Source: Myxococcales bacterium
GTDB taxonomy: Bacteria > Myxococcota > UBA727 > VGSZ01
DNA: 64,000 bases
NCBI GenBank assembly: GCA_023248635.1
Contig: JAHFED010000014.1
Span: 8,419 to 72,418 of the forward strand
Direction of reading: 5' to 3'
Position 1 is the first letter of the stretch; every line of letters begins with the position of its first letter. Position numbers and translations under genes: made by a program. The notes beneath the pieces were generated by a model that was not told the origin of the DNA, did no database searches, and saw only the letters and a program-made list of their open reading frames with translations. Positions 6,066-61,870 of this stretch are shown here, piece after piece.

Positions 6066-6491
6066 TCAGGCCAAGCGGGAGACCAACATGAAGTTTGGCT
6101 GTTCAAGACGCTGGCGCGTCTTGAAGAGGGCGCCGAGGGCGACGAAGTAGACGACGCTGCGCAAAGCGAGGGTTTCGATCGCGAACCAATAGAATACTGC
6201 ATGCAGCATGCGGGAGACGACGTAAACCATACTTGTGGCCGCGGTGACGTCGTCGTGCTTTCCAGTCACGTGTAGAATGAGCACAATGATCGCAAACATC
6301 GGCAGGTTTTCTTTGTGATTGTTCGAAGCCCGTTCAGCGCGGCCCATCCAGGGCTCCATCGGGGGTTCGACCTCGCGGCTGCTGATGCCCCAGCCGACGC
6401 CGACACGACGCATCTTGCCGATCGGCGCCGCATAAAAGAGGGGGATGGTCCACAGCGTGAGGACCACCAAGCACCACAGGTCCGTCGTCAT
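6066..6491 (-). CDS. MAPEG family membrane protein
   Basis: ATG at 6491. 'MTTDLWCLVVLTLWTIPLFYAAPIG...ENLPMFAIIVLILHV...YVVSRMLHAVFYWFA' with four TM segments. The 3' end reads through a copy of palindromic repeat A (6102-6125). Confidence 0.6.
   Translation of the reverse strand: MTTDLWCLVVLTLWTIPLFYAAPIGKMRRVGVGWGISSREVEPPMEPWMGRAERASNNHKENLPMFAIIVLILHVTGKHDDVTAATSMVYVVSRMLHAVFYWFAIETLALRSVVYFVALGALFKTRQRLEQPNFMLVSRLA
6102..6125. repeat. Repeat A copy: 24-bp perfect palindrome TTCAAGACGCTGGCGCGTCTTGAA
   Basis: Read directly in the sequence. It lies inside the 3' end of the MAPEG ORF. Confidence 0.8.
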
Positions 6492-7048
6492 CCGACTCCT
6501 GAATCCGGCGTGCGCTCGCGAGGCCCGCGGTTGAGCTTGCCGACCAACAAGAAGGCCTCGATGACGCCGACAGGAATGCGCTGGGGACGGTGGTTGGCGA
6601 TGGCGACGAAGACCCACTCGGTGCGGGCGCGCAAGATCTCTGCGTTGTCGCTCAAGCGCACCACACGGGTGCGCCGCCAGGCCGAGGCCAAGCGACAGTC
6701 TTCGATGACGGTGGTGACGACGACGTTGTCGCCGGCGTGGCAGCCGCGTTTGTAGTCGACCTCGTGCCGCTTGACGATGAAGGTGCCACCAGCGCGCTCG
6801 TAGGCCGCGCGGTCCCAGCCCACGCACTCGGTGTGGGCCCGGGCGGCATCTTGGATCCAGCGCACGTAGGAGACGTTCGAGATGTGACCGTTTTCGTCTT
6901 CTTCGTCGACGCGGGCGGTGTGCAGCCAGTCGAAGAAGGAGAGCACCGGGCCGCTGTCTTCGACGCAGGTGGGGCGCGAGCGGTCTCCCTGGCGCTGCGG
7001 GCTGGTGGCGTCGGTGGCGACGTGGTGCGCGCGGCCCAGGGAGCTCAT
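6488..7048 (-). CDS. 4HBT/hotdog-fold acyl-CoA thioesterase (YbgC-like)
   Basis: ATG at 7048. 'FFDWLHTARVDEEDENGHISNVSYVRWIQDAA'. A 4-bp overlap with the MAPEG start indicates an operon. Confidence 0.65.
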   Translation of the reverse strand: MSSLGRAHHVATDATSPQRQGDRSRPTCVEDSGPVLSFFDWLHTARVDEEDENGHISNVSYVRWIQDAARAHTECVGWDRAAYERAGGTFIVKRHEVDYKRGCHAGDNVVVTTVIEDCRLASAWRRTRVVRLSDNAEILRARTEWVFVAIANHRPQRIPVGVIEAFLLVGKLNRGPRERTPDSGVG

Positions 7049-7413
7049 GTCAGCAGGCCGCCGATGGTCTTCACCATGTCGAGCTCGTCGCGGTGGATGC
7101 CGTCGACGGCGCCGATGCGCGCGGCCTCTCTCAGGACCTCGCTCCGGTGGGGGATGAGCAGCGCCAAGTTGGGAGCGGGCAGCGGTCCGCCTTCGTCGAG
7201 GCCCCGACGCACCATCTCCACGGCCTGCTCCCCACCGAGCCGCAGTGCGACGGCATCGAGGTAGATCCGCTCGACCGGGGTGACGACGTCGTCGGCGGTG
7301 ACGACCTGCAGCAACAACTTCACGAGCTCGGTGCCGATGTTTTGGTCCACGGTGTCGGCTGCCAGTTCTGCCGGCGGCACGCAAAGGGGCCCGAGCCAGA
7401 TCCGTCTCTTCAA
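7045..7413 (-). CDS. TerB-like (tellurite-resistance/DjlA N-domain-like) protein. The start is uncertain because the TTG lies inside repeat A.
   Basis: 'VDQNIGTELVKLLLQVVTADDVVTPVERIYLDAVALRLGGEQAVEMVRRGLDEG'. It overlaps the thioesterase start by 4 bp. Confidence 0.4.
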   Translation of the reverse strand: MKRRIWLGPLCVPPAELAADTVDQNIGTELVKLLLQVVTADDVVTPVERIYLDAVALRLGGEQAVEMVRRGLDEGGPLPAPNLALLIPHRSEVLREAARIGAVDGIHRDELDMVKTIGGLLT

Positions 7414-8985: not shown

Positions 8986-10448
8986 ACGTCGTCGTCCTTG
9001 CCGCTTGGCTCGTCGGCGCCGGCCCGCCTGCTGTGGCCACGGGCCCAGAGCCCGTGCGCACGGTGCAGCCGCCCCCGGCTCCCGAGCGCCCCTTTGTCGT
9101 GCCGGCGATCCAGACCGGTGCGGTGCCCGGCACCAAGCTCGACGTCGTGCTCGTCGAAGACCACAGCCTCCCCGCCGTGCAGTTGCGGCTGGTGTTTCCG
9201 ACGGGAAGCATCGGCGATCCAGGCGACAAGACTGGGCTCTCGGGGCTGTGCGCGCGCCTGGTGAACGAAGGCACCGCGCGCCTCGACAAGGTCGCCTTCG
9301 AAGGAGCACTGGCCGATCTGGCCGCCTCTGTCGACGTCGGTGCCGGCGTCGAGCAGTCCTACCTTTCGTTGCATTCGCTCAAGGAGACTTGGTTGCCCAC
9401 CCTCGATCTCGCCGTCGAGCTCGTCGCCAATCCGGGTTTGCGTGAGGACGATCTGCAGCGGGTGCGCGCGCGTTCCCTGGCCCAACTCCAACAGCAGAGG
9501 GGATCGGCCGCCGGCATCGCCCAACGCCTGCAGGGTCGCTTGACCTGGGGCAGCACTCATCCTTTGGGGGCCCTGGTGACCGAGGCCTCGCTGAGCGCGA
9601 TCGGCACCAAAGACTGCGCTGCGGTGATGGCGGGTTGGCGCCCCGATGGAGCCCGCGTCTTCGTCGCCGGCGACGTCAGCATGGCCGAGGTCACCGCCGC
9701 CTTGGCGAAACGCATCGAGCGCTTTCATTGGCGCGGTCAGACGACGAAGGCACCGTCGGTCCCGGCCGCGCTCTTTGATCCCTTGCTCGACGGAGCCACC
9801 GTGACCCTCGTCGACGTGCCCGGCGCCGAACAGTCCGTCGTCGTCGTCGCCGGCCTGGGACCTGCTCGTCAGGCCAGCGATCACGAGGCCACCGAGGTGA
9901 TGACGGCGATCTTGGGAGGCAGTTTCTCGTCGAGAATCAACATGAACTTGCGCGAAAAGAACGGTTACACCTACGGCGCCCGCGCCGGCATGAGCTACCT
10001 GAAGAAACGCGGATCGTTCACGACGTCGACGTCCGTACGCACCGATGTGACAGGCAAGGCTCTGCAGGAGATCAGCAACGAGCTCCAGGCGCTGCGCACC
10101 GGGCCCGTGAGCGACATCGAGGTGGCCCGCGAGCGCGATGGCAGCCTGCTCGCCTTTCCCGCCTCCTTTTCCACCTCGAGCGCGACCCTCGACAGCTGGA
10201 GCTCCCTCTTCTTCTACGACCTGCCCAAGGACACGCTGAAGAAGACTCCCGCGCGCTTGAAGGCCTTGACCAAGGCCGACGTCGAACGCGCCGCCCGCGG
10301 GCACGTGCCCAAGAGCTTCCGCCTCCTCGTCGTTGGCGACGCCAGCCGCATCCGCGCCGAAGTCGCCGCCCACGCTGCCGCCGGCACCTTCGGCAAGCCC
10401 GGCCCCGTCGTCGTCGTCGACGCTGACGGCCAGCCCCGCCTGCCCTGA
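8982..10448 (+). CDS. M16 family peptidase, second (probably non-catalytic) subunit
   Basis: ATGA overlap with the upstream M16 gene. Signal 'MNVVVLAAWLVGAGPPAVA'. The M16 fold motif region lacks HxxEH. Confidence 0.75.
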   Translation: MNVVVLAAWLVGAGPPAVATGPEPVRTVQPPPAPERPFVVPAIQTGAVPGTKLDVVLVEDHSLPAVQLRLVFPTGSIGDPGDKTGLSGLCARLVNEGTARLDKVAFEGALADLAASVDVGAGVEQSYLSLHSLKETWLPTLDLAVELVANPGLREDDLQRVRARSLAQLQQQRGSAAGIAQRLQGRLTWGSTHPLGALVTEASLSAIGTKDCAAVMAGWRPDGARVFVAGDVSMAEVTAALAKRIERFHWRGQTTKAPSVPAALFDPLLDGATVTLVDVPGAEQSVVVVAGLGPARQASDHEATEVMTAILGGSFSSRINMNLREKNGYTYGARAGMSYLKKRGSFTTSTSVRTDVTGKALQEISNELQALRTGPVSDIEVARERDGSLLAFPASFSTSSATLDSWSSLFFYDLPKDTLKKTPARLKALTKADVERAARGHVPKSFRLLVVGDASRIRAEVAAHAAAGTFGKPGPVVVVDADGQPRLP

Positions 10449-10605
10449 TCCTCTGGGAGGTCTGGTGCAGACCTCCCAGAGCGCCGGCAGAGCCGGACGC
10501 GGGCCCCCCCACCAACTCCGCGTTCCGCGGGCGCGCTTCACGCGCACCATCCCGCATCTTTCCCATCTCGGAACGCGGTCGAACATCAAGCGGACGCGGG
10601 ATCAG
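10447..10605 (+). repeat. Repeat B copy 1 (MITE-like structured element, 5'-truncated form)
   Basis: It begins TGATCC at the M16B stop codon, contains the GGAGGTCTG-gtg-CAGACCTCC hairpin, and ends GGGATCAG. Confidence 0.8.
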
Positions 10606-10625
10606 CTGCCCGCGCTGAGGGCAGA

Positions 10626-14475: not shown

Positions 14476-16446
14476 TCAGGATCGTTGGAGGATGCGACGG
14501 CGGGCGGCCTCGGCGGCGGCGGCGTCGAGGCGCCCGGTGGCTTTGGCCTCGTCGATGGCGCGCAGGCGGGCGGCCACCGGTCGGTTGACATCGTCGACGA
14601 AGGCGCTGGGATCCTTGGCGACGACGACGTCGGCCGCAGATCCAGCGGGGCGCACGCGGGTGCGGGGCGCGGGGCGCGGGGCGTCCGGCGCACTCGGTGC
14701 GCGCACCGGGGGAGTCGGCGGCTCGCTGGCGGGCGGAGGTGCGGGGCCCGCCAAGAGCACCTGGGCCCGGGCCTTGACCTCTTGGTCGGGGTCGCCGTCG
14801 GCGACCGCTTGCAGGGCCGCGCGGGCCAGGGGGGTGGCGTGGCGGTGCAGGGCATCTAGCACGAGCAACGACACGCCGCGCTCGCCCCGATCGAGCACGT
14901 CTTCGAGGCGGGTGACGGCGTCGGCGAAGCCGGGCTCCAGGAAGCGGGCGACGAAGCTGGCGGCGACCAGGCGGGTGTCGGGCGAAGGATCGGCGGTGCG
15001 ATCGAGCACGTCTTCGATGACCCACAGCGGCGGCGGATCGTCCTCGCTGTAGCAGCGATCGAGCACGCAGATCGCCAAGCGACGTTGGGAGGCCGTGACC
15101 CCAAAGACCAGCGGACGCACGCGGTGACGGATGCGCACCTTGAGAGCGACCTGCGTGACCTCGATGCGCGAAAGGGCGATCAAGATGGCCTCTTGGCCCT
15201 CGGGAGGCGGGCGCGGTACCGCCGTCAACGTCGCCAGCAGGGGCGCCACCAGGTCTTCGTGGTCTTCGCGCACCGACTCCGAGACGGCGATGGCGGCGGC
15301 CTTGCGCACTTCTTCGTGGGGATCCGAAGCCAGCAACAGCGTCGCCGCGCGGGCGCCGACTCGATCGGCCAGGCGTCCCAAGCACACCACCGCCCCTGCG
15401 CGCACGAAGGGATCGGGGCTGCGCAAGAGGGGGAGCAGGGGTTGAGCGACGCCTTCTTCGGTGCCGGTCAAGCAGTTCGCGAGGGCTTTGAGCGCCACGG
15501 CCTGCACGTCGCGCTCGGCGGAGGTGCGGGCTTCGCTCGTCGCCACCATCAACAACGCCGACGCCGCCTCGGTGGCCTGCAGCTGGGCCAGGGCCAGGCA
15601 GATGCCCATGCGCGCGGGCACATCCGAGCCCACGCGCTCGACGAGCAAAGGCACCATCTCCTGGCCGCGGGCGACGACGTCCTCGATGGCCTTAGCTCTC
15701 TCCCCCCAGCGCGGGTCGCGCAGGCGTTGCATCAGAGCTTCTTTGGGATCCAAGGGTGCCGGAGCAGCGGGCGCCTGCTGCTTCACCATCGCTTCGAAAT
15801 CGAAAGCCAGAGCACCTTCGGGCAGGCCCACAGCAGGCGCCGCCGACGACGACAGGAGCGCTGCGAAGTCCACGGCCATGGCACCCGCGGGCAGCCCGTC
15901 GGCGCCAGCCCCAGCCGGGCTCGACGTCGTCGCTGACGATTGGGCCAAGGGCCGGCGGCTGCGCAACTCGATGAGGGCCGCACGGGCGCGGCGTTTCACT
16001 TCGTCGTCGTCGTCAACGGCGGCCATGATCATCAGGCGCTCGTCGCAGCCTTCGTCACCGATGTGGCGCAACACCGGGATCACAGCCGCCCGCGTGGCTG
16101 CCACGAGCTCCGCCGACAAGGTCAAAGCGTGACGTCGCAGCCGGCTGTCTTTGGCGTGGCGGTCTTCGACGAGATCACCCAGGGCCCGCGCGATGGCCCC
16201 GCGCTCGTCGTAGCCCAGGGTGCCGCGGTCGAGCAGATCGAGCAGCACCGGCACGCCCTCTTTGGCTTCGAAGGCGGCCAGCAGCAGCACCATGCGCGCC
16301 ATCGCCTTCGACGCCATCGGGCCCTTGAGCGCAGCGACCAGCGCGTGGACGGCGGCGCGTTTGTCGCCCATCAAGGCCGCCAAGGCCCGATCGCGCTCGG
16401 CTTCGTCGTCGTGGGAGAGCTTTTGGACGGCTTCGGTGACGTTCAT
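14476..16446 (-). CDS. HEAT-repeat protein
   Basis: ATG at 16446 (MNVTEAVQKL...). Repeated 'AR/VRxxAAxALG' HEAT-like units throughout. Confidence 0.55.
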   Translation of the reverse strand: MNVTEAVQKLSHDDEAERDRALAALMGDKRAAVHALVAALKGPMASKAMARMVLLLAAFEAKEGVPVLLDLLDRGTLGYDERGAIARALGDLVEDRHAKDSRLRRHALTLSAELVAATRAAVIPVLRHIGDEGCDERLMIMAAVDDDDEVKRRARAALIELRSRRPLAQSSATTSSPAGAGADGLPAGAMAVDFAALLSSSAAPAVGLPEGALAFDFEAMVKQQAPAAPAPLDPKEALMQRLRDPRWGERAKAIEDVVARGQEMVPLLVERVGSDVPARMGICLALAQLQATEAASALLMVATSEARTSAERDVQAVALKALANCLTGTEEGVAQPLLPLLRSPDPFVRAGAVVCLGRLADRVGARAATLLLASDPHEEVRKAAAIAVSESVREDHEDLVAPLLATLTAVPRPPPEGQEAILIALSRIEVTQVALKVRIRHRVRPLVFGVTASQRRLAICVLDRCYSEDDPPPLWVIEDVLDRTADPSPDTRLVAASFVARFLEPGFADAVTRLEDVLDRGERGVSLLVLDALHRHATPLARAALQAVADGDPDQEVKARAQVLLAGPAPPPASEPPTPPVRAPSAPDAPRPAPRTRVRPAGSAADVVVAKDPSAFVDDVNRPVAARLRAIDEAKATGRLDAAAAEAARRRILQRS

Positions 16447-16526
16447 GTCTTCGGCAGCATCCAGACAAGGGAGGCTTGAGCGCAAGCGGTGTTTCTCTCC
16501 TTCGAACGGACCCCTACACTGGTCCG

Positions 16527-16916
16527 ATGGCGATCCTCGACAAGCTGGCGGGACTGGGCGGCGCGGTGAAGAGCACCTTCGATCGCACCTTCGGCGAGGC
16601 CACCAAAGTCGACGACGACGACGACGTTGCTGCGCTGCCGGTGGGCCTCGATCTGGCGCAGGCCTGGGGGGTGCTCGGGCTGACGGCCTCGGCCACCCTC
16701 GACGACGTCCGCGCCGCCTCCCGCACCCTCGCCCGCCTGCACCACCCGGGATCGGTGCGCAAAGACGCCGCCGCCGCCGTCGCCCTGGCCCGGGTGGCCG
16801 AGGCGTCGGCGCTGCTCGAAGAGCATTTGCTGCCCCTGGTGCCCTCCAAGGTCCCTGGTCCCGCTGCCGCATTGACGTCGAAGCGCACCCGGGCCACGGC
16901 CCGCACCCCACGCTGA
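16527..16916 (+). CDS. Small J-domain-like protein with HPD degenerated to HPG
   Basis: 'LDLAQAWGVLGLTASATLDDVRAASRTLARLHHPG'. It is divergent from the HEAT gene. Confidence 0.35.
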   Translation: MAILDKLAGLGGAVKSTFDRTFGEATKVDDDDDVAALPVGLDLAQAWGVLGLTASATLDDVRAASRTLARLHHPGSVRKDAAAAVALARVAEASALLEEHLLPLVPSKVPGPAAALTSKRTRATARTPR

Positions 16917-17050
16917 CTCATCCGGGAAGATCTCGCGATTTCGGGGCGTCACGCGAGCGCAGCGCAGCCGAAGAATTGGGCCCGCAAGCGCAGACATATG
17001 CCCGAGCCGGGTGAAGCAGTTGGCGCAGCCGAAAATCAGCCGGATTCGGA

Positions 17051-17270
17051 ATCATCCCCGATCTCTCTGAACTTCGACCGCGGAGCGGTCTCGTTCAGAG
17101 CCGTCGGGGATGCTCTTCTGGGAGGTCTGGTACAGACCTCCCCCCGCGCCGGCGGAGCCGGACGCGGGGCCCCCCACCAACTCCGCGTTCCGCGGGCGCG
17201 CTCCACGCGCATCATCCCGCGTCTTTCCCATCTCAGAACGTGGTCGAACATCAATCGGACGCGGGATCAG
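17051..17270 (+). repeat. Repeat B copy 2 (full length)
   Basis: TGATCCCCGATCTC...GGAGGTCTGgtaCAGACCTCC...GGGATCAG. The PEBP stop codon lies in the terminal GATCA. Confidence 0.85.
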
Positions 17271-17746
17271 GTGCGTCGGGCCTCATCGCGTGAGCTGAGC
17301 TGCAGCTCATAGGTCCCCACCAATTGCGCCCCGCCCAGCACATGACCGCGCATGGCGAGCTCGAGCTGGGGCTTGGTCGGCGCCCCGATGTCGGGCAGCT
17401 GGGTGTCGAGGGCGAAGAGGGTGAACACGTAACGATGACGGCCCTTGGGCGGACAGGGTCCACTCCAGCCCACGCTGTTCCAACTGTTGGTTCCCTGCCG
17501 AGCACCGGTGGGCAGCGGCCCCGTCAAACCCTGTGGCAACGTCGTCGTCGTCGGTGGCAGGTTGTAGACGATCCAGTGCACCCACGAGCCATCTTGGGCA
17601 TCGAGGTCGTCGACGATGAGCGCCAGGCTTTTGACCCCGCTGATGTCGACGTCGATGAGCAGGGGCGGCGAGACGTTGCCGCCTTCGCAAGTGAAGCGTT
17701 GGGGAATCTCGCCCTGAGAGCGAAAAGCCGGTGAGGTGATGCGCAT
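17267..17746 (-). CDS. YbhB/YbcL family PEBP (Raf-kinase-inhibitor-like) protein
   Basis: ATG at 17746. 'MRITSPAFRSQGEIPQRFTCEGGNVSPPL...DGSWVHWIVYNLP...GWSGPCPPKGRHRYVFTLFALD'. Confidence 0.75.
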   Translation of the reverse strand: MRITSPAFRSQGEIPQRFTCEGGNVSPPLLIDVDISGVKSLALIVDDLDAQDGSWVHWIVYNLPPTTTTLPQGLTGPLPTGARQGTNSWNSVGWSGPCPPKGRHRYVFTLFALDTQLPDIGAPTKPQLELAMRGHVLGGAQLVGTYELQLSSRDEARRT

Positions 17747-45871: not shown

Positions 45872-46087
45872 CTCATCCCGGGTCCGCTTGATGTTCGACC
45901 GCGTTTCGAGCTGGGAAGGACGCGGGATGATGCGCGTGAAGCGCGCCCGCGGAACGCGGAGTTGGTGGGGGGGCCCGCGTCCGGCTCCGCCGGCGTGGGG
46001 GGTCTGCATCAGACCTCCCAGAAGAGCATCCCCGACGGAGCTGAACGAGACCGCTCCACGATCGAAGTTCAGCGAGATCGGGGATCA
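45872..46087 (-). repeat. Repeat B copy 3
   Basis: Reverse orientation. The rsmI stop codon lies in the terminal GGGATCAG. Confidence 0.85.
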
Positions 46088-47259: not shown

Positions 47260-47476
47260 CATCCCGGGTCCGCTTGATGTTCGACCGCGTTCCGAGTTGG
47301 GAAGGACGCGGGATGATGCGCGTGAAGCGCGCCCGCGGAACGCGGAGTTGGTCGGGGGGCCCGCGTCCGGCTCCGCCGGCGTGGGGGGAGGTCTGCATCA
47401 GACCTCCCTGAAGAGCATCCCCGACGGAGCTGAACGAGACCGTTCCGCGGTCGAAGTTCAGCGAGATCGGGGATCA
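47260..47476 (-). repeat. Repeat B copy 4
   Basis: Reverse orientation. The anti-sigma stop codon lies in the terminal GATCAC. Confidence 0.85.
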
Positions 47477-52377: not shown

Positions 52378-53428
52378 CCTGAATGCAACGCTAAGTCAGT
52401 ACACTGTTTTCGGCTGGACCCTGCCGAACATCGTCTACCTCGTCGTGTTGTGCCTGGTGGTGTGCCTGGGCGGCATGGGAGGCATGGCGGCCGGCACCTG
52501 GTTCGAGCGTCGCTTCATCGCCCTGCTGCAGGTGCGCAAGGGGCCGAACCGTGTCGGACCCCTGGGGCTCTTCCAGCCCGTCGCCGACGGCATCAAGACT
52601 TTCTTCAAAGAAGATCTAATCCCCGCCACCGCCGACCGGCCTCTCAACCGCCTCGCCCCGGGCATCGCCCTCTTCGCCGCGCTCATGAGCCTGTGCGTGC
52701 TGCCCTTTGGACCCTCCTACGACATCGAAGGCTGGGGCAAGCTCACTTTGTATGTTTCCGACCTGAACGTCGGCGTCTTGTTTCTCTTGGGTGTGGGATC
52801 TCTGCATGTCTACGGCGTCATCTTGGCCGGCTGGTCGAGCGGCAATAAGTATAGCCTATTGGGCGCCCTGCGGGGAGCAGCCCAGCTGGTGTCCTACGAG
52901 ATCGTGCTGGGCATGAGCCTGGTCGGTGTCGTGATGATCACCGGTGAGATGAGCCTGGGCGGCATCGTGCGCTGGCAACACGAGCACCATCTGCCGCTGG
53001 TGCTGCTGCAGCCCATCGCCTTCGGCCTCTTTTTCGTCTGCATGTTCGCCGAGACCAACCGCCCGCCCTTTGACCTCGTCGAAGCAGACACCGAGCTCGT
53101 GGCGGGGTTTCACACCGAGTACTCGGGCTTTCGCTACGCCTTGTTCATGATCTCCGAGTACGTCGCGATGATCACGGTCTCGGTGGTTGCGACGTCGCTG
53201 TTCTTCGGCGGCTGGGGCGGACCGTTCGGCTTGTTGCCCGGCATCTGGTGGACCTTCATCGGCATCGCTTTCTTCTTCTTCATGTTCGTCTGGGTGCGGG
53301 CCACCATCCCCCGCCTTCGTTATGACCAGCTCATGAGGCTCTCTTGGAGCTACCTCATCCCCATCGGACTGGTGAACCTCGCCCTCACCGCTGTCGCTGT
53401 TGTCGCCTTCGGCGGCGACAAACCGTGA
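52367..53428 (+). CDS. nuoH: NADH-quinone oxidoreductase subunit H (NuoH)
   Basis: 'GWSSGNKYSLLGALRGAAQLVSYEI...FAETNRPPFDLVEADTELVAGFHTEYSG'. It overlaps the nuoG end. Confidence 0.85.
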   Translation: MLSDLNATLSQYTVFGWTLPNIVYLVVLCLVVCLGGMGGMAAGTWFERRFIALLQVRKGPNRVGPLGLFQPVADGIKTFFKEDLIPATADRPLNRLAPGIALFAALMSLCVLPFGPSYDIEGWGKLTLYVSDLNVGVLFLLGVGSLHVYGVILAGWSSGNKYSLLGALRGAAQLVSYEIVLGMSLVGVVMITGEMSLGGIVRWQHEHHLPLVLLQPIAFGLFFVCMFAETNRPPFDLVEADTELVAGFHTEYSGFRYALFMISEYVAMITVSVVATSLFFGGWGGPFGLLPGIWWTFIGIAFFFFMFVWVRATIPRLRYDQLMRLSWSYLIPIGLVNLALTAVAVVAFGGDKP

Positions 53429-53436
53429 GGTCGCAG

Positions 53437-54155
53437 TGACCGCCACCGCCGCCCCCGCCTCGACCAAGCCCCGCATCTTGATCGTCGAAGACGACGCCGC
53501 CATCGCTGCCGGCCTGCGGCTCAACCTCAAGCACGAGGGCTACGTCGTCAGCGTCGAGCACGATGGCGAGACGGGCTTGAAGCGCGCCCTCGACGACGTC
53601 CCCGATCTGGTGGTGCTCGACGTCATGTTGCCCACCATGAACGGCTTCGAGATCTTGCGTGAGCTGCGCCGGCGCGGGTCGACGTCGGGCGTGATCCTGC
53701 TGACCGCCAAAGGCCTAGAAGAAGACAAAGTCATGGGCCTCGACCTCGGCGCCGACGACTACGTGCAAAAGCCCTTCGGCCTCAGCGAGCTGATTGCTCG
53801 CATCAACGCCGTGCTGCGTCGTCGACAGGCCCAGCAGCCCTCGCTCGTGCTCTTCTCCGACGTCCGGGTCGATCGGCGCGCCCGCACCGTGACCCGCGCC
53901 GATCAGCTGGTGTCGCTGTCGCCGCGCGAGATGTCGCTCCTGCTCTACCTCATCGATCACCCCGGCCGCGCCCATACCCGCGATGCCCTGCTCGAGGGAG
54001 CCTGGGGCCTCGACTACGAAGGCACCGAGCGCACTGTCGACAACTTCGTCGTCTCTCTGCGCAAGAAGCTCGAGGTCAACCCCGACGAGCCTCAGCATTT
54101 CGTCACCGTCCGCGGCGTCGGCTACCGCTTCGATCCCCTGCCTGCCAGAGGCTGA
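53437..54155 (+). CDS. OmpR-family response regulator (REC plus winged-helix)
   Basis: 'RILIVEDDAAIAAGLRLNL...LVVLDVMLPTMNGFEILRELRR...ILLTAKGLEEDKVMGLDLGADDYVQKPF'. C-terminal '...VRGVGYRFDP'. A GTG start lies 9 nt after the nuoH stop. Confidence 0.8.
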
Positions 54156-54188
54156 TCGGCCCCCCGGCCTGGGCAAAGAACTGGGCGG

Positions 54189-54644
54189 TCAGTGCCGAAC
54201 CAAACGAATGCCAAACTCGGCGCGAATCTGAGCCAGCGGAATATTCATATACTGATCATGTTCATGAAAAGGCCATTTCTTCGACATGCGGAAAACGCGC
54301 CAAAGAACAGTGATCAAGCGAGGCACCGCCCGCACGGTGGCGGCGATCACGGATCCGAAACCAACCTCCAGAAAAACCGCCCTGGTTTCGGGCAACTGGG
54401 TGTAGCGCAGGTACTCTCGGAACGGGACGTCGGTACCGAACATCTGCCAGGTGTCGGCCAGCGGCTCGCCGTTCAAGGTGGTGTCGCAGCCGAAGACCAC
54501 ATGGCCCACGTCGTGCTTGAGCATGAGCGCGGCTACTTCTTTTGATGCGTTGGCCTCGGTGAGTAGGCCTGGAATGGATGCAAAATATTCGGTAAGCCCC
54601 TCTTTCAGAGTTTGTTGAGTATCTTGATCCAGATAACGCAACAT
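54189..54644 (-). CDS. Coq4-like protein (ubiquinone biosynthesis COQ4 family core, 151 aa)
   Basis: 'SKEVAALMLKHDVGHVVFGCDTTLNGE' matches the COQ4 HDxxH-x11-E zinc motif and its flanks. The 3' part of the gene is AT-richer than its surroundings. Confidence 0.5.
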   Translation of the reverse strand: MLRYLDQDTQQTLKEGLTEYFASIPGLLTEANASKEVAALMLKHDVGHVVFGCDTTLNGEPLADTWQMFGTDVPFREYLRYTQLPETRAVFLEVGFGSVIAATVRAVPRLITVLWRVFRMSKKWPFHEHDQYMNIPLAQIRAEFGIRLVRH

Positions 54645-54742
54645 CGTATTCCACCTTTCACGCAGCGATCTTCGCCGATCCAGAACCCAAGGTGCAAGGT
54701 CGTCGTCGTTGTTGCGGGCTTTCTCGGGCTATCGTCGACGTC

Positions 54743-55321
54743 ATGGCCCGTCTGTTGTGCATCTGTGGCAAGCGCTTCGCCGGCAAAGACACCTTCGCAG
54801 CGCTGCTGAAAGAACAGGCCCGGGCTCGCGGCGTCGTCCTCGAGCTGTACGCTTTCGCCGGCGAGAGCAAGCGGCTGTTCGCGCAACAAGAGAAAGCCCG
54901 CGGCGTCGACGTCGAACTCCACCGGCTGCTGCACGATCGGGCCTACAAAGAGGGGCTGCGGCCCCAGCTCACGCGCTTCACCGTCGACGCCATCGACCGA
55001 GATCCTCTGGTGTTTTGCCGCGCCGTCGCCGATCGCATTGCCGCCGCCGACGACGCCGTCGCTGTGGTCACCGATTTGCGCCTCATCCTCGAGGTTGAGC
55101 ACCTGCGGACGCGCTTCGGCTTGGTGGTGGTGCGCTTGCGACGCTCGGACCAAGACCGGGCCGCCAGCGGATGGCGTTTCGATGCCGCCATCGACGGCCA
55201 CCACACTGAAACCGAGCTCGATGATCCCAAGTGGTGGACAGCGGTCGTCGACAACGACGGCAGCGTTGAAGCGCTGGCTCCCCGAGCCGCCGAGCTGCTC
55301 GACGCCGTGCTGGTGCGATGA
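54743..55321 (+). CDS. Animal-type phosphomevalonate kinase (PMVK, P-loop)
   Basis: ATG at 54743. 'LLCICGKRFAGKDTF' (compare metazoan 'LLFSGKRKSGKDF'). 'LLHDRAYKEGLR', 'DPLVFCRAVADR', 'VVTDLRLILEVEHLRTRFGLVVVRLRRSDQDRAASGWRF' align block-by-block with metazoan PMVK. Confidence 0.7.
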   Translation: MARLLCICGKRFAGKDTFAALLKEQARARGVVLELYAFAGESKRLFAQQEKARGVDVELHRLLHDRAYKEGLRPQLTRFTVDAIDRDPLVFCRAVADRIAAADDAVAVVTDLRLILEVEHLRTRFGLVVVRLRRSDQDRAASGWRFDAAIDGHHTETELDDPKWWTAVVDNDGSVEALAPRAAELLDAVLVR

Positions 55322-58857: not shown

Positions 58858-59078
58858 GGATCATCCCCGATCTCGTTGAACTTCGACCGCGGACCGGTCT
58901 CGTTCATCTCCGTCGGGGATGCCCTTCTGGGAGGTCTGGTGCAGACCTCCCCCCGCGCCGGCGGAGCCGGACGCGGGGCCCCCCACCAACTCCGCGTTCC
59001 GCCGGCGCGCTTCACGCGCATCATCCCGCGTCTTCCATCTCGGAACGCGGTCGAACATCAAGCGGACGCGGGATCAGA
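58858..59078 (+). repeat. Repeat B copy 5
   Basis: Full-length copy. Its terminal GATCAG holds the stop codon of the downstream minus-strand gene. Confidence 0.85.
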
Positions 59079-61121: not shown

Positions 61122-61622
61122 ATGTACCCAGGATTCTTCCACTGGTGGAAAGAAGCACAACGCCACGCCAGCGAACACCACGGAGCCCACGCCTCCTGCG
61201 GACCAGCCGCCTGCGGACCAGGCGGACGTCGACAACGGCACCGCGGTCCCGACGATCACGAAGCAGCAGGCGAAGACGGCGGCGGCTTCGGCGTCCGACG
61301 ACCCTTGCGCTTCATGGCCTGGAAGCTTGAGCTCGACGAAAACCAGGTCGACAAGCTCGCAGCCATCCTCGCCGATCTGAAAACCGAAAGAGCCCAGGCC
61401 GCCGTCGACCACCAACGCTCGGTGGGCACTTTCGCCGATGTGCTCTCCCCCGAAACCTTCGACAAAGACGCTGCCAGAGCCGCCGCCAACGCCCGCGTCG
61501 TCACCGCCGAACGCCTGCGCGACGCCGTCGTCAAAGCCCTCGAGAAGACCCACGCCCTTCTGACCCCCGACCAGCGCAAGCAGCTGGCCTACCTGCTGCG
61601 CTCCGGCCAACTGACGATTTGA
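61122..61622 (+). CDS. Spy/CpxP/ZraP-family (LTxxQ motif) protein with a His-rich N-terminus. The start is uncertain; an alternative ATG lies at 61314.
   Basis: SD AAGGAG then ATG at 61122. 'LDENQVDKLAAIL' and 'LLTPDQRKQLAYLL' (two LTxxQ-type motifs). 'HWWKEAQRHASEHHGAH'. Confidence 0.45.
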   Translation: MYPGFFHWWKEAQRHASEHHGAHASCGPAACGPGGRRQRHRGPDDHEAAGEDGGGFGVRRPLRFMAWKLELDENQVDKLAAILADLKTERAQAAVDHQRSVGTFADVLSPETFDKDAARAAANARVVTAERLRDAVVKALEKTHALLTPDQRKQLAYLLRSGQLTI

Positions 61623-61870
61623 TCCCCGATCTCGCTGAACTTCGACCGCGGAGCGGTCTCGTTCATCGCCGTCGGGGATGCTCTTCTGGGAGGTCTGGTG
61701 CAGACCTCCCCCCGCGCCGGCGGAGCCGGACGCGGGGCCCCCACCAACTCCGCGTTTCGCGGGCGCGCTTCACGCGCATCATCCCGCGTCTTTCCCATTG
61801 GCGTCTTCGACGCCGTCGTCGATGTCGTCGCTCTCGGAACGCGGTCGAACATCAAGCGGACGCGGGATGA
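61619..61870 (+). repeat. Repeat B copy 6, with a roughly 35-bp internal insertion carrying an extra hairpin
   Basis: It begins TGATCCCCGATC, forming the stop codon of the preceding gene, and ends GGGATGAG. The insertion is GGCGTC-ttcg-GACGCC. Confidence 0.85.

Follow-up and report, generated by a model that had tools for sequence, protein, structure and literature searches.

Does a small gene that carries the metal-binding signature of COQ4, lying back to back with a gene for a eukaryote-type phosphomevalonate kinase (PMVK), mark an isoprenoid and quinone module in a myxobacterium, or did the two genes come to lie together by accident? The locus is found in a 64,000-nucleotide stretch of contig JAHFED010000014.1 from a Myxococcales bacterium (hereafter the window). 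From the sequence alone, an earlier note had described a 151-amino acid (aa) protein with an HDxxH-x11-E motif whose gene is divergent from PMVK and AT-rich in its 3' part, and had pointed to two eukaryote-like isoprenoid and quinone genes side by side, one possibly acquired horizontally. The features themselves (reading frame, motif, divergence and AT-richness) are confirmed by our analysis, and the interpretation holds in part: membership in the Coq4 superfamily and horizontal acquisition stand, while the coupling of PMVK to a quinone gene does not. In the reading that we favour and regard as fairly probable, the gene encodes a small all-helical metalloprotein of a short branch of the Coq4 superfamily, recently acquired by horizontal transfer as an insertion of about 589 bp between the genes of a response regulator and a PMVK-like kinase.

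The short-form family and its relation to Coq4

The coordinates of the Coq4-like open reading frame (ORF) and its neighbour (Table 1) agree with a 151-aa product encoded divergently from the PMVK-like gene across a 98-bp gap, in which a consensus sigma-70 promoter was not found. The same gene was called in two other public assemblies of the organism (L008, 99.88% DNA identity; L009, 100%). The motif comprises H44, D45, H48 and E60 and is the single HDxxH-x11-E match across a six-frame translation of the window. With 0.11 such matches expected by chance, it carries no weight as evidence by itself. H44, D45 and H48 do not vary in a 69-sequence alignment of the family, where E60 is at least 90% conserved, and 12 of the 17 motif positions are identical to HDIWHVVTGCDTDKPGE of Alr8543 (PDB 6E12).

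Four independent family-level tests (sub-threshold Pfam matches, a profile search of the PDB, hhalign and Foldseek) all indicate Coq4 and no other family. PF05019 is the sole recurrent Pfam family: 8 of 14 and, in the larger sample, 46 of 69 members match it, with a best E of 1.7e-6 and all below threshold; relatives score 19.7-21.1 bits and cover profile positions 125-218 of 221. NCBIfam gives zero matches for the 151-aa query and nothing recurrent across the 69 members. Searched against all PDB sequences, the family profile retrieves 3MSQ (E 3.6e-4, aligning query residues 43-148 with chain residues 124-221) and 6E12 (E 1.4e-3) and nothing else. An hhalign comparison of the 69-sequence family with a 16-sequence vertebrate COQ4 alignment yields an E of 5.2e-5, pairing query residues 39-149 with human residues 158-257 and spanning the metal motif through the terminal LREELGI helix of COQ4. 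This is further supported by two AlphaFold (AF2) models, with a pLDDT of 84.2 and then of 95.5 (pTM 0.90): for both, the top three Foldseek matches in the PDB are 6E12_A, 6E12_B and 3MSQ_A, with probabilities of 0.82-1.00 against at most 0.08 for all others.

The region in common with Coq4 is the C-terminal half of the domain. The short form retains about 110 C-terminal residues, including the whole metal site and the C-terminal IRxEFGI helix, has a family-specific N-terminus of 40 residues and lacks about 75-120 N-terminal residues of Coq4, so that a complete domain of ~220 residues is not present in the 151-aa protein. A split Coq4 with its N-terminal half encoded by a neighbour was considered and rejected, as the window holds no partner gene and an overlapping ORF upstream of the homologue in L004 is dissimilar. 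The protein is a member of the short-form branch of the Coq4 superfamily and not a canonical Coq4. The designation Coq4-like in the earlier note is consequently sound at the level of the superfamily, where profile and fold evidence for the family points to Coq4; the protein itself falls short of the Pfam threshold and is without the N-terminal half. The resemblance of the motif flanks to human COQ4 that it had claimed was not recovered, a pairwise BLASTP of the query against primate COQ4 being not significant.

How widespread is this branch? A word-indexed search returned 13 relatives of the query at 42-62% identity, and an exhaustive search with the family profile extended this to 570 clusters (50% identity) with E<=1e-3, 358 of them at E<=1e-10, nearly all 145-175 aa long and matching the profile end to end. 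Their distribution is patchy and covers Myxococcota, Binatia, several Gammaproteobacteria, Bacteroidota, Nostocales, Acaryochloris and Pyrinomonadaceae. Homologues reside on plasmids of Acaryochloris and Nostoc, two of the four plasmids being typed as conjugative. On the conjugative plasmid pREB1 of Acaryochloris marina, RefSeq WP_012166799.1 (151 aa) is already named 'Coq4 family protein'; the query matches it with 36% identity over 99% of its length (E 6e-27), and the GO term 'ubiquinone biosynthetic process' on that record is a purely electronic assignment. The JGI and RefSeq pipelines also tag some homologues as Coq4 or ubiquinone biosynthesis. The family is automatically annotated but uncharacterised, and the present gene adds one further member. 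No relevant paper on a short Coq4-like family came up in a literature search, a phage collection contained no homologue of the protein, and the PADLOC defence models gave no match.

Family loci were collected with the 14-sequence alignment, and across 82 of them there is no widely conserved neighbour and no conserved quinone gene. The commonest neighbour is a short-chain dehydrogenase (SDR, 16 loci), which directly adjoins the short Coq4 gene in Binatia (convergent) and, co-directionally, in Fischerella and Nostochopsis, where a small P-loop protein follows. A divergent TetR regulator is conserved beside the gene in Nostocales. On pREB1 (L096, 5001-7432) the gene lies just upstream of one for a BBE-domain (berberine-bridge-like FAD oxidase) protein, and near an ISL3 transposase, plasmid ParA/ParB and hypothetical genes. 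The closest genomic homologues, in L010 (CAZLMW010000169.1) and L011 (CAZSAT010000127.1), share 55-57% identity on contigs of 65-72% GC; their titles, 'uncultured Enterobacteriaceae/Enterobacterales', look wrong as taxonomic labels. Fusions of the short module occur once each in P0131, P0022, P0088 and P0113, the partners being a PEMT/ICMT membrane methyltransferase, TerB, an MTTB fragment and GNAT. An ICMT fusion would suit a prenyl or lipid substrate. As all four are singletons and possibly gene-call artefacts, we do not rely on them as a clue to function.

Composition and synteny around the gene

The Coq4-like gene has a GC content of 54.8% in a window of 66.6%, a value within the bottom 0.06% of 456-bp windows. 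The AT-richer patch that had been pointed out in its 3' part (54195-54340, 52% GC, lowest 1.2% of 146-bp windows) is real and wider than claimed, as the whole gene deviates. The same holds for codon usage. The G+C content of third codon positions (GC3) is 0.645, compared with 0.832±0.028 and a minimum of 0.770 in 27 window genes with Pfam-supported reading frames, a reference set unbiased for composition (z = -6.7). An index resembling the codon adaptation index (CAI-like), calibrated on window genes, is 0.47 for this gene and 0.62-0.73 for the others. GC3 is low in the first and last thirds of the gene (0.52 and 0.58) and stands at 0.84 in the middle third. Other 152-codon windows as low as this are confined to one stop-to-stop ORF, 14479-16917, a HEAT-repeat gene, and there to an unverified extension at the 5' end (16250-16917, minus strand, GC3 just 0.54-0.66); either the gene's true start lies further downstream or the window contains a second compositionally odd segment.

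The gene is missing from two relatives that keep the order nuoG/nuoH, response regulator and PMVK-like gene. In L091 (GCA_030685175.1) the DNA identity is 80% for nuoG/nuoH, 91% for the response regulator and 76% for the PMVK-like gene, and 305 unrelated bp separate the latter two. In L098, nuoH and the response regulator form one block of 87% identity and the PMVK-like gene is 78% identical, with 2 bp between the stop of the regulator and the start of the kinase: bases 1-1312 correspond to window positions 52856-54158 (87%) and bases 1317-1828 to 54748-55262 (78%). A remnant of the Coq4-like gene was not found in either relative by tblastn. Since response regulator and PMVK-like gene are adjacent in relatives without the Coq4-like gene, the divergent pair is the product of a single-gene insertion. 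Horizontal acquisition, with which the earlier note had found the base composition compatible, is well supported and is strengthened by a GC3 6.7 standard deviations below the mean together with the absence from both syntenic relatives.

Some further features of the surroundings deserve mention. Conservation within the block is highest for the response regulator, with its 91% identity to L091 against 80% for nuoG/H. The 2-bp spacing in L098 (575-1938) gives the regulator and kinase genes an operon-like appearance, and this pair is separated by the insertion in the window genome. Flanking direct or inverted repeats were considered as insertion scars and dropped, only short matches at chance level being present. 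Six copies of an intergenic repeat (~165-220 bp, 90-96% identity) with the look of a MITE or REP element are also scattered over both strands of the window.

Table 1. Positions of the features discussed, given in window coordinates unless a locus is named.
Feature	Position	Strand	Basis or remark
Short-form Coq4-family ORF, 151 aa	54189-54644	-	longest ORF possible in its own frame
Shine-Dalgarno-like AAGGTGG	54651-54657	-	direct sequence reading; 6 nt 5' of the Coq4-like ATG
HDxxH-x11-E divalent-metal motif HDVGHVVFGCDTTLNGE (H44, D45, H48, E60)	54465-54515	-	motif scan
Segment of ~589 bp without counterpart in L098 (inserted gene and short flanks)	54159-54747		L098 alignment
OmpR-type response regulator gene, 239 aa, convergent with the insertion	53436-54155	+	Pfam Response_reg and Trans_reg_C
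PMVK-family (PF04275) P-loop kinase gene, 192 aa, native to the lineage	54743-55321	+	Pfam, match to human PMVK (3CH4)
Dispersed repeat copies	17041-17280, 58860-59077, 47261-47474, 45872-46085, 61622-61798, 10446-10609	both	none adjoins the Coq4-like insertion
TetR/SDR contexts of family members	L069 5356-7744; L086 5304-6522; L016-L027 ~6450-7200		neighbourhood comparison

The PMVK-like neighbour

The neighbouring kinase is truly homologous to animal-type PMVK. It passes PF04275 with 56.6 bits (gathering score 33.8) and matches human PMVK (3CH4) over its full length with an E of 8e-14. In contrast, it misses the TIGR01223 equivalog with 68.8 bits against a cut-off of 188.15, and it also touches PF21448, a deoxynucleoside monophosphate (dNMP) kinase family. 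The subfamily to which it belongs is found across Myxococcota (153 matches at 54-75% identity) and retains K17, R18, K22, D23, K48, R73, R110, R130 and R138 of human PMVK, including the P-loop GKRxxGKD. Unlike the animal enzyme, it carries the fixed replacements K19 to F, R84 to I or L, R111 to L and R141 to S, at four basic positions that are conserved in both solved PMVKs. R84 and R111 are residues that we take, from mutagenesis of the human enzyme, to contribute to phosphomevalonate binding. The substrate of the subfamily may be other than phosphomevalonate.

With a GC3 of 0.80 and a CAI-like index of 0.66 the gene is typical of the window, and it represents a vertically inherited Myxococcota subfamily. 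Among the relatives compared (L090-L098) it is usually convergent with a gene for an FAD oxidoreductase of ~410 aa, and a Ham1-like NTP pyrophosphatase gene lies nearby in some loci. Mevalonate genes do not adjoin it in the window or in the contexts of six relatives. None of 87 other loci encoding a short Coq4-family member has a PMVK-like gene within ~6 kb (tblastn), and the 30 largest ORFs of the window include no Ubi, Coq, Men or mevalonate (MVA) gene. The adjacency of the Coq4-like and PMVK genes is fortuitous, a by-product of the insertion. A meaningful isoprenoid and quinone pair, as implied in the earlier note, finds no support in these counts or in the syntenic relatives; tempting as it is, the 'quinone + isoprenoid' pair at this locus is an accident of a single-gene insertion.

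Function, alternative readings and known systems

Most host phyla of the short-form family use menaquinone or plastoquinone and not ubiquinone, and Myxococcota, Bacteroidota and Cyanobacteria, in which the family is common, are not known to make ubiquinone. Because the family spans such phyla without conserved quinone or isoprenoid neighbours, the protein is probably not a dedicated enzyme of the ubiquinone pathway, and the automated GO term 'ubiquinone biosynthetic process' on the record of a member named 'Coq4 family protein' is probably wrong for the short branch. The catalytic role of COQ4 itself was assigned only recently, and the protein is difficult to work with in vitro. As a widespread bacterial family with the metal-binding half alone, the short form could serve as a small, tractable model of the COQ4 active site.

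COQ4 is a Zn2+-dependent C1 decarboxylase in coenzyme Q biosynthesis, and its activity requires exactly the four motif residues (PMC7615680). In cells it is required for oxidative decarboxylation, and the cyanobacterial homologue 6E12 has a binuclear metal site next to a hydrophobic tunnel (PMC10680789). By analogy with COQ4, H44, D45, H48 and E60 would most likely bind a divalent metal such as Zn2+, and the protein would most likely perform Lewis-acid chemistry of a decarboxylase-like or hydrolase-like kind on a small hydrophobic molecule of aromatic or lipid-like nature. Its gene landed between the response-regulator and PMVK-family kinase genes that lie side by side in relatives.

Several points weigh against this reading. 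In the Pfam scan called for by the earlier note the query has no PF05019 match even at E<=1, and the family members remain under the gathering score of 22.9 bits. The hhalign probability is just 67%, against a narrow vertebrate-only profile. The TM-scores to Coq4 structures are just 0.50-0.58 with an rmsd of 7-9 Å; the overall architecture therefore differs and part of it is in common with Coq4, in agreement with the alignments. The short form may also lack part of the substrate tunnel that full-length Coq4 has. With respect to the insertion, mobile-element marks (direct repeats, target duplication, integrase, insertion sequence (IS), tRNA) were not found flanking it, the homologues nearest to the query, at 55-62% identity, come from metagenomes and lie on GC-rich contigs, and no composition-matched donor was found. 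That an ancestral gene was lost twice in relatives is, strictly speaking, conceivable.

How do other explanations fare with this evidence? The least probable, and in our view hardly credible, is a divergently transcribed isoprenoid/quinone module of a functional Coq4 orthologue and a eukaryote-type PMVK. The motif is intact, the adjacent gene scores above the PF04275 threshold and is similar to human PMVK, the common 98-bp intergenic region could house divergent promoters, and the pipeline labels of some homologues agree with such a role. However, the pairing is limited to this organism, the N-terminal half of Coq4 is absent, GC3 sets the two genes apart (0.64 versus 0.80), the kinase subfamily lacks K19, R84, R111 and R141 and scores 68.8 against 188 bits, its usual neighbours are FAD oxidoreductase and in some loci Ham1-like genes rather than MVA genes, and the short family is common in phyla that are not known to make ubiquinone. 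The adjacency of response regulator and PMVK-like gene in relatives without the Coq4-like gene largely refutes this module. Very unlikely, too, is a fortuitous motif in an unrelated helical protein without Coq4 homology. The lack of Pfam and NCBIfam matches for the query, the insignificant BLASTP comparison with COQ4, the chance expectation for the motif in the window and the modest TM-scores would all suit it. It is countered by the four family-level tests, which connect the protein to Coq4 even though the query has no HMM match of its own, by alignments that run ~100 residues past the motif to the C-terminal IRxEFGI / LREELGI helix, and by the 12 of 17 residues identical to Alr8543 over the motif. 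A native gene, with a low GC content from local or selective effects and loss in relatives, is unlikely in turn. The lack of mobile-element scars, a neighbour-joining (NJ) tree in which its nearest clade lies next to Myxococcota sequences, and the position of family genes a few GC points under their surroundings in many genomes are consistent with such an origin, yet GC3 and CAI-like values lie far outside the native range, the family is patchy and occurs on plasmids, and two independent, precise deletions would be needed in L091 and L098, the latter leaving a 2-bp junction between response regulator and PMVK-like gene.

Two further readings accept the Coq4 relationship. The likeliest of all alternatives, though still doubtful, is a non-enzymatic member of the superfamily, a lipid- or polyprenyl-binding or sensor protein, which echoes the older view of Coq4 as a scaffold and the ligands in the Alr8543 crystals. 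The small size of 151 aa and the TetR pairing in Nostocales, which fits a response to small molecules, are in line with this idea, whereas metal ligands invariant (E60 at least 90% conserved) across very divergent members are more typical of catalysis, and COQ4 itself is catalytic (PMC7615680). We also consider, as a speculation of somewhat lower probability, that the ~150-aa family is a minimal, self-sufficient Coq4 catalytic module: a metal-dependent (de)carboxylase whose substrates would be hydrophobic aromatic acids, prenylated or otherwise, and whose role would lie beyond the ubiquinone pathway, for instance in specialised metabolism or in detoxification under TetR control, spread horizontally among menaquinone and plastoquinone bacteria. 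If true, such a module would reveal which part of COQ4 does the chemistry and which serves the assembly of complex Q. The recently inserted metalloprotein of a short Coq4-superfamily branch remains the reading that we prefer.

Set beside known systems, the protein shares with eukaryotic COQ4 (PF05019) the HDxxH-x11-E ligand set and the homologous C-terminal ~100 residues including the (I/L)RxE(F/L)GI helix. It differs by lacking profile positions 1 to ~124 (151 aa against a domain of ~220 aa), by staying below the Pfam threshold, by the lack of COQ/Ubi partners nearby and by a family that lives mostly in lineages without ubiquinone. The PMVK-like gene is likewise homologous to animal-type PMVK (PF04275, TIGR01223; 3CH4) over its full length and set apart from it by its four replaced residues, its equivalog score, its touch on PF21448 and the absence of adjoining mevalonate genes. 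The record WP_012166799.1 belongs to the same short-form family, with homology over the full length, and is likewise uncharacterised; it comes from another host phylum, is plasmid-borne and has a BBE-domain oxidase and hypothetical proteins as neighbours. The best and sole credible matches by both profile and fold are the cyanobacterial Coq4-type proteins Alr8543 (PDB 6E12) and Npun02000094 (PDB 3MSQ), which at ~225 aa extend about 75 residues further at the N-terminus and are only 15-21% identical in sequence, with the low TM-scores given above. They have the HD..HVV.GCDT...GE signature in common with the 151-aa protein and, like it, are functionally uncharacterised proteins of hosts without ubiquinone.

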